A stretch of 64,000 nucleotides of DNA from Escherichia coli (GTDB lineage Bacteria > Pseudomonadota > Gammaproteobacteria > Enterobacterales > Enterobacteriaceae): assembly GCF_044647545.1 (NCBI RefSeq), contig NZ_CP172818.1; one strand, 5' to 3'. Below, in pieces: positions 1,405 through 1,907 of the stretch. The notes beneath the pieces are model-generated. The model was given only the letters and a program-made list of their open reading frames with translations, was not told the DNA's origin and made no database searches. How positions within the stretch are numbered: position 1 is the stretch's first letter; the number at the start of each line of letters is the position of its first letter. Made by a program: the position numbers and the translations under genes.

Positions 1405-1907
1405 TTATTCGATGTTAGACTCGATAAACCACAGGAATTTATCCAGGTCGCGAGACGCGGCGGTCAGGATATCTGCGGTGTCGTCATCTTTCGCTTCGCC
1501 AATCGCTTTGCGTACGTCATTAGCGACGATTGCGTAACGGTCAGCCAGCTCTTTCAGGTGATCCTGAACGTTGTGGATGTCCAGCGGGTAACTTTTCAGC
1601 GGAGTTTTGCTGTTAATAACTTGAGTGGTCCCCAGAGCTACACCGCCCAGCTGCACTGCACGTTCTGCCATGGTATCCAGATGATCGATCAGTGCAGTGC
1701 GGAAGCCATCCAGCATTTCATGTACGGCAATGAAGTTAGCGCCGCGCATGTTCCAGTGCGCTTGTTTGGTAATCAAAGAAAGATCAATAAACTGGATAAC
1801 CTGGCGATTCAGCAACTCTACTGTTGCTTTTTCTCGCTGTCAGAGACATCGTTGCGGGTATAAAGCAGATTGGTCGCTTTTGATTTAACTAATTTAGCGG
1901 TACTCAT
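1405..1907 (-). CDS. dps: DNA-binding protein from starved cells Dps, reading frame interrupted by an apparent 1-bp deletion (A6 to A5) near codon 29
   Basis: Two adjacent minus-strand ORFs (1818..2048 containing [27 protein letters not shown], and 1405..1815 starting [11 protein letters not shown]...) together make Dps; the span is 503 bp rather than 504; the break sits in gagaaaaagcaacag around 1822-1836. Confidence 0.85.

Follow-up and report, generated by a model that had tools for sequence, protein, structure and literature searches.

The dps gene in the 64,000-nt stretch of Escherichia coli DNA analysed here (the window) is interrupted by the contraction of a single A-run by one nucleotide, and the missing A is, in our judgement, probably a residual consensus error of a long-read or hybrid assembly in which A6 was called as A5. 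Homopolymer contraction in the long-read consensus would then have left A5 in the assembly and A6 in the organism, which would probably have an intact, functional dps. The same lesion recurs in public data and is associated there with error-prone assemblies, and it is from such comparisons that we infer an error in this particular window. The features concerned, all on the minus strand, are the following.

1405..1907, minus strand: dps, interrupted by a 1-nt contraction (NF006975 profile, and identity to PDB 1F30 after repair)
1828..1832, minus strand: A5 run; only 13 of 5,426 complete E. coli genomes depart from A6 here by having A5 (genome comparison)
1818..1907, minus strand: N-terminal frame, from ATG (1905-1907) through 27 native codons to Gln-Gln-TAG, a 29-aa peptide ending EKKQQ (translation)
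1405..1815, minus strand: C-terminal frame of 136 codons from TTG (wild-type Leu32), LNRQVIQ...SNIE (translation and profile)
1827..1833, minus strand: G_AAA_AAG motif made by the contraction (computed)
1908..2206, minus strand: dps-rhtA intergenic region, the same as in strain 1428 (sequence comparison), in which the dps promoter presumably lies

As written, dps is 503 nt long and the A-run that follows GAG (codon 25) is A5, window 1828-1832 (T5 on the plus strand), followed by GCAACAGTAGAG; the wild-type form of the run is GAG-AAAAAA-GCA (A6), so that the window is one A short. The run spans codons 26-27, codon 28 is the first to be altered and a TAG stands at codon 30, hence the single uninterrupted frame of ~167 codons is absent and the gene is split into ORFs of 29 and 136 codons. 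The shorter of these lies within a program-called ORF (1818..2048, minus strand) whose frame reads ...SDSEKKQQ. The window has a single copy of the 26-nt string that spans the lesion, where 0 would be expected by chance. With one A put back the gene is 504 nt long and matches dps of the ST648 strain 1428 in every nucleotide, and its 167-aa product is 100% identical over its whole length to E. coli Dps (WP_000100800.1; PDB 1DPS and 1F30, the latter being the crystallised protein used for comparison). The repaired product scores 309 bits against the NCBIfam equivalog NF006975 (cutoff 114) and the 136-aa fragment scores 267 bits over profile positions 32-167. The gene order glnH-dps-rhtA-ompX is the standard one for E. 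coli, and over window positions 1..10548 the A-run is the sole difference from strain 1428, with no secondary decay in dps or its flanks. That the lesion is a 1-nt homopolymer change in otherwise unchanged sequence is one reason for favouring an error. The initial annotation had described dps as split by a 1-bp deletion that shortens it from 504 to 503 bp, which is borne out by the ORFs, the length and the repair to canonical Dps; it had located the break at the right site, near codon 29, although its codon numbering was slightly off.

The same annotation had expected six A's at the break, and this is what nearly all complete genomes have. A megablast search with 651 nt around dps found matches in 5,421 of the 5,426 complete RefSeq E. 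coli genomes, but only CUVET20-PYO4 was identical to the window over 651/651 nt, the other top matches listed having 652 nt where the window has 651. A 45-nt probe specific for A5 and unable to seed on A6, run on the same 5,426 genomes, identified 13 carriers (0.24%), and more than 99.7% of complete genomes have an intact dps, which also speaks against a genuine deletion. Ten of the 13 carriers sit in four runs of neighbouring accession numbers: CUVET (CUVET20-PYO4 and CUVET21-37), CP1273xx (two genomes), CP1465xx (four) and CM14266x (two). Within each run the members examined share a place of origin, but they are not clonal, because the alleles of neighbouring proteins differ among them; CUVET20-PYO4, for instance, is ST648 of phylogroup F and CUVET21-37 is ST101 of phylogroup B1. 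A5 thus follows accession batch and assembly quality and not lineage, which is unlike a real mutation and favours an error.

The surroundings of dps in these genomes point in the same direction, although not in all of them. A further 1-nt lesion was found at most 6 kb away in 6 of the 11 carriers examined; APEC37, A1.S1.18, B1.H1.18, UID2309220007 and UID2309220004 each have 1-4 more genes called 'frameshifted' within 6 kb. Farther off, ~20 kb from dps, gsiA is frameshifted in NH-21. No second frameshift was seen within 6 kb of dps in C25, CUVET21-37, HS-01, NH-21 and ES1, nor any other frameshift over 52 kb in HS-01, and some carriers are otherwise clean across 40-52 kb, which is in favour of a genuine deletion. 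PGAP flags dps as 'frameshifted' in CUVET20-PYO4 (NZ_CP115376.1, PCS82_RS24415) and in 10 other RefSeq carriers examined, and the A5 allele is therefore already on record in RefSeq as an annotated 'frameshifted' pseudogene.

Beyond RefSeq, the 29-aa peptide specific for A5 is found on 645 public contigs. Twelve GenBank/ENA chromosomes or contigs of Mb scale, taken as the first to come up, comprised 11 with A5 and one with A7, and all 12 hold several more split genes within 6-10 kb (ybiT, ldtB, ybiR, opgE, rhtA, glnH, ybiO, rlmF), their small indels lying nearly all in homopolymers of at least 4 bases. An error is favoured since both the carriers and these Mb-scale assemblies hold such further lesions nearby. 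The 114-aa product blocks number 806 on contigs under 5 kb, 68 on contigs over 1 Mb and only 27 in the range of 50 kb-1 Mb, where contigs of Illumina isolate drafts are expected, and this scarcity also favours an error. It is likewise favoured by the finding that all short-read-type assemblies examined, two Illumina-era drafts and 28 of 28 metagenome contigs, have A6; no metagenome contig matched the A5 pattern, a result that carries little weight with a wild-type control of only 28 contigs, and the denominators are small for the drafts as well.

Apparent short-read evidence for A5 was traced to other causes. Where Logan and Illumina-era contigs encode the 136-aa product, the cause is either A6 sequence with scaffold N-gaps, as in the two Illumina-era drafts, whose truncated dps calls stem from N-gaps, or a putative IS1 end beside codon 31. 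In the latter case two Logan contigs, ERR13499487_95 (positions 1-33) and SRR32418376_196 (positions 1-31), start with a sequence abutting dps codon 31 (GAG TTG CTG...), ~10 nt downstream of the A-run. We take the start sequence of both to be the IS1 terminal inverted repeat, in which case dps would have been hit by a genuine IS1 insertion in two independent runs. On this reading real disruption of dps does exist in nature, which lends some credit to a genuine lesion in the window.

The alternative that survives best is a genuine 1-nt slipped-strand deletion in A6, with dps a recent pseudogene that was maybe inherited in a Bangkok canine ST648 (O1:H6) clone including CUVET20-PYO4; we regard this as possible but rather unlikely. 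CUVET20-PYO4, from a dog with pyometra in Bangkok, is the sole ST648 genome in RefSeq with A5, so that among these genomes the allele is common only to it and the window, and its dps pseudogene shares with the window the A5 allele, the 651/651 nt identity and the ST648 background. Two further ST648 chromosomes of the CUVET project, CP115326 and CP121673, lie outside the RefSeq set and could turn A5 into a derived trait common to the members of one clone. However, A5 is the only derived character found in common between the window and CUVET20-PYO4. No SNPs common to these two alone were seen; the SNP at 16629, considered as a shared-derived character, proved to be private to strain 1428, many ST648 genomes matching the window, and the same is presumed of those at 30588 and 37322, which lie outside the stretch compared for 16629. 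In the first 25 kb the dps run and one anomalous block are all that separates many ST648 genomes from the window.

The other private indels of CUVET20-PYO4 look like errors, which also counts against a genuine deletion. This genome is a Unicycler hybrid assembly of NextSeq and ONT R10.4 reads (PMC11116460), and within 109 kb three of its coding genes (dps, ybiR and ltaE) have a private 1-nt deletion each, against ~2 private SNPs, a proportion that does not seem to be the outcome of evolution. The ybiR deletion lies 5.9 kb from dps and is unflagged, ltaE is frameshifted farther off, and strain 1428 has intact copies of both. Both deletions change GGCC to GGC, and the shared context suggests a systematic basecalling error, perhaps linked to methylation. 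Errors in the GGCC context could inflate cgMLST distances such as the 182-189 loci reported among ST648 strains (PMC11116460). The window is not itself the CUVET20-PYO4 record: it is without the ybiR deletion, the nfsA SNP and the P2-like prophage of that genome, and it has private changes of its own and several anomalous blocks. The prophage, of ~34 kb, sits between rcdA and ybjL (window ~44955) and is absent from strain 1428 also; a related prophage is found at the same rcdA-ybjL site in NH-21.

We also compared the whole window with strain 1428 and found ~6 SNPs, two 1-nt deletions (in dps and at 57614) and four anomalous blocks, which are listed here.

10554-13840: GH31/MFS transporter/LacI island of the ybiT-ybiU interval, which is longer by 1.9 kb in all ST648 relatives (comparison)
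20396-20461: indel-rich block in the fsa-moeB intergenic spacer, with 25 indel columns in ~90 nt against ST648 strains
32774-33688: toxin-antitoxin locus (HTH antitoxin, RelE/ParE toxin) of the dgcI-rimO interval, with ~40 gap openings
61247-61566: ~320 nt between ybjP and ybjQ, replacing a 2.5-kb region with a pentapeptide-repeat pseudogene in ST648 relatives

In the indel-rich blocks mismatches are about as frequent as indels of 1-4 nt and the transition:transversion ratio is near 1, and the best match of these blocks among complete E. coli genomes is at most 84-93.5%. The island at 10554-13840 has ~92-93.5% identity, with 130 mismatches, 134 indel columns and no ORF longer than 155 aa, and no complete E. 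coli genome exceeds 93.5% identity to it; its appearance is that of uncorrected long-read sequence or of artificial decay, and not that of natural divergence. The toxin-antitoxin locus has only ~78-84% identity to any of the 5,426 genomes, ~84% being the best, and for its flanks the identity to ST648 strains is 100%. The block at 61247-61566 has no detectable similarity to the 2.5 kb that it replaces, and for a query across it the coverage stays below 80% in every complete genome. Such stretches do not have the appearance of natural E. coli DNA, and they indicate that parts of the window's assembly were left uncorrected by accurate reads; the presence of blocks whose indels are error-like and for which no E. 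coli genome gives a match is a further reason for favouring an error in dps. The private changes of the window amount to 2 indels against 2-3 SNPs. The deletion at 57614 (CAGCACG to CAGACG) is not in a homopolymer; it falls in the REP-like artJ-artM spacer and is absent from strain 1428 and from CUVET20-PYO4. The private SNPs include a synonymous one at 34521 in rimO and a nonsynonymous one at 54298 in potI (Cys to Gly), and the public gene-position collection has no exact match on record for this PotI variant protein.

Near dps, however, the window is in good order, and this supports a genuine deletion. All window genes within ~8 kb of dps are intact, and strain 1428 agrees with the window at every other A6/T6 run that lies outside the anomalous blocks (63 in the whole window). 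The lesion resembles nanopore homopolymer contraction errors in that one base is lost from an A/T run of at least 5, in its recurrence across unrelated strains, in its grouping by accession batch and in its company of other homopolymer indels; it is unlike typical errors of this kind in that neither the window nor five of the RefSeq carriers have a second one close by. Moreover, a hybrid assembler that starts from short reads is normally expected to call A6 correctly, which counts against an error. The intact genes beside dps in the window, the five locally clean carriers and the uncontracted control runs described below all stand against our preferred explanation, and the initial annotation, which had left the choice between a sequencing error and a genuine frameshift, is answered only in part: the comparative evidence favours the error, short of settling it.

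If the deletion is genuine, translation would end after 29 codons and full-length Dps would be largely lost, with at most low-level N-terminally truncated Dps from TTG/Leu32 or full-length Dps obtained by slippage. The TTG of Leu32 starts 2 nt past the TAG of the upstream frame and is a possible reinitiation site, residues 28-31 (ATVE) being open in the downstream frame but placed before its first start codon. Loss of 31 residues presumably clips the first helix of Dps, making folding and dodecamer assembly uncertain. The residues that we take to form the ferroxidase centre, H51, H63, D67, D78 and E82, all fall within the downstream 136-codon frame on direct reading of the translation, so a product reinitiated at Leu32 would keep them and yet be without K5, K8, K10 and R18. 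Deletion of the first 8 or 18 residues of Dps is reported to reduce sharply DNA binding and self-aggregation in vitro (PMC4433220); by analogy with these variants, the Leu32 product, which is likewise without the tail although it would lack 31 residues and not 8 or 18, should lose DNA binding and condensation. The proposal in the initial annotation that a reinitiated product would lose the Lys-rich DNA-binding tail is sound, K5, K8, K10 and R18 all being missing (PMC4433220), and its statement that a genuine lesion would cost the strain full-length Dps agrees with the stop at codon 30, except that some leak by −1 slippage is conceivable.

Such a leak is the basis of a narrower proposal, in which the deletion is real and fixed in the canine ST648 clone and Dps is tuned down through a −1 slip on the GAG AAA AAG that the deletion itself made; we consider this very unlikely, but if true it would be a natural 'saviour' frameshift reducing, and not abolishing, the most abundant stationary-phase nucleoid protein. 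The mechanism is relevant only if the lesion is real: tRNA-Lys would slip −1 from AAG to AAA and GCA would be read next, which by computation gives the exact wild-type protein. The A_AA.G tetramer is the most shift-prone in E. coli (PMC4066793), and at the non-canonical site C-AAA-AAA 25-60% rescue of 1-nt deletions was obtained under overexpression (PMC1851650). Like dnaX A_AAA_AAG and pDEST17 C-AAA-AAA, the window has a Lys-Lys codon pair ending in AAG at which a −1 slip compensates a 1-nt deletion (PMC1851650), but unlike them it has G as the first base (near-cognate P-site re-pairing), the arrangement is not conserved and no stimulator was found. The A_AAG tetramer is thus present in GAG AAA AAG, but the heptamer G_AAA_AAG is non-canonical, its first base differing from the X_XXZ_ZZN pattern (as defined in PMC4066793). 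A stimulator would be expected as a downstream structure at ~5-8 nt or as an upstream Shine-Dalgarno-like element; the only downstream hairpin starts 0 nt past the motif and is not significant (z = −1.4 against shuffles), and no Shine-Dalgarno-like element was seen at the expected distance upstream on reading the sequence. In the absence of a stimulator such tetramers are at background, with 0.147% for A_AA.G against a background of 0.112%, compared to 5.6% with a pseudoknot (PMC4066793). A −1 slippage leak of full-length Dps thus stays conceivable by analogy if the lesion is real, and its size is unquantifiable from sequence. That the A-run is a functional switch, either a phase-variable tract or a programmed −1 frameshift site G_AAA_AAG setting a reduced Dps level, we find scarcely credible, for although A5, A6 and A7 are all seen in public assemblies, the A5 and A7 calls track error-prone assemblies, and a designed switch is not supported because the arrangement is not conserved (13 of 5,426 complete genomes, 0/28 metagenome contigs), no stimulator was found and the tract is short, at 6 nt, all contingency tracts known to us being longer than six A's.

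Either of the two main readings is a known kind of thing, the same allele having already been annotated by PGAP. A genuine deletion would mean a clinical ST648 lineage without most or all of its full-length Dps, for which sensitivity to peroxide and stationary-phase stress is predicted; the finding would be modest and confined to the strain level, homopolymer frameshift pseudogenes being well known. Should the missing A be an artefact, the dps A-run (GAGAAAAAAGCA) is a recurrent site of false frameshifts, with 13 RefSeq complete genomes and ~645 public contigs affected, that gives rise to spurious 'dps pseudogene' calls and inflated allele-based distances such as cgMLST. Recognition of such a recurrent false-frameshift site in dps of public assemblies is a by-product of this analysis.

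To characterize the specificity of the contraction, two T6 runs of glnH (window 705-710 and 279-284), a gene adjacent to dps and equally conserved, were used as controls. Contraction of these runs to T5 was found in 0 of the 5,426 RefSeq genomes, against 13 for dps, and the corresponding control products were present on 54 and 2 contigs against 645 for dps, exact-match counts of this kind favouring short products. A model of uniform random homopolymer error fails on these counts, since the dps site is contracted more than the neighbouring A6/T6 runs, and the dps run is thus a site-specific hotspot and not generic noise. The far higher frequency of contraction in dps than in the glnH controls is an argument for a genuine deletion, and a mutational or selective hotspot is possible; the link to assembly quality and accession batch, however, points to a context-dependent technical cause, and the purine-only context AGCGAGAAAAAAGCAACAG is a candidate reason for the excess at this site. 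A second run was also considered as an error site, at window 2023-2028, 121 nt upstream of the dps ATG, where on the gene strand ST648 strains and C25 have T6 and 17/20 A5 carriers have T5. It was rejected, both lengths being present in wild-type metagenome contigs (4/28 scorable), and it appears to be a natural polymorphism.
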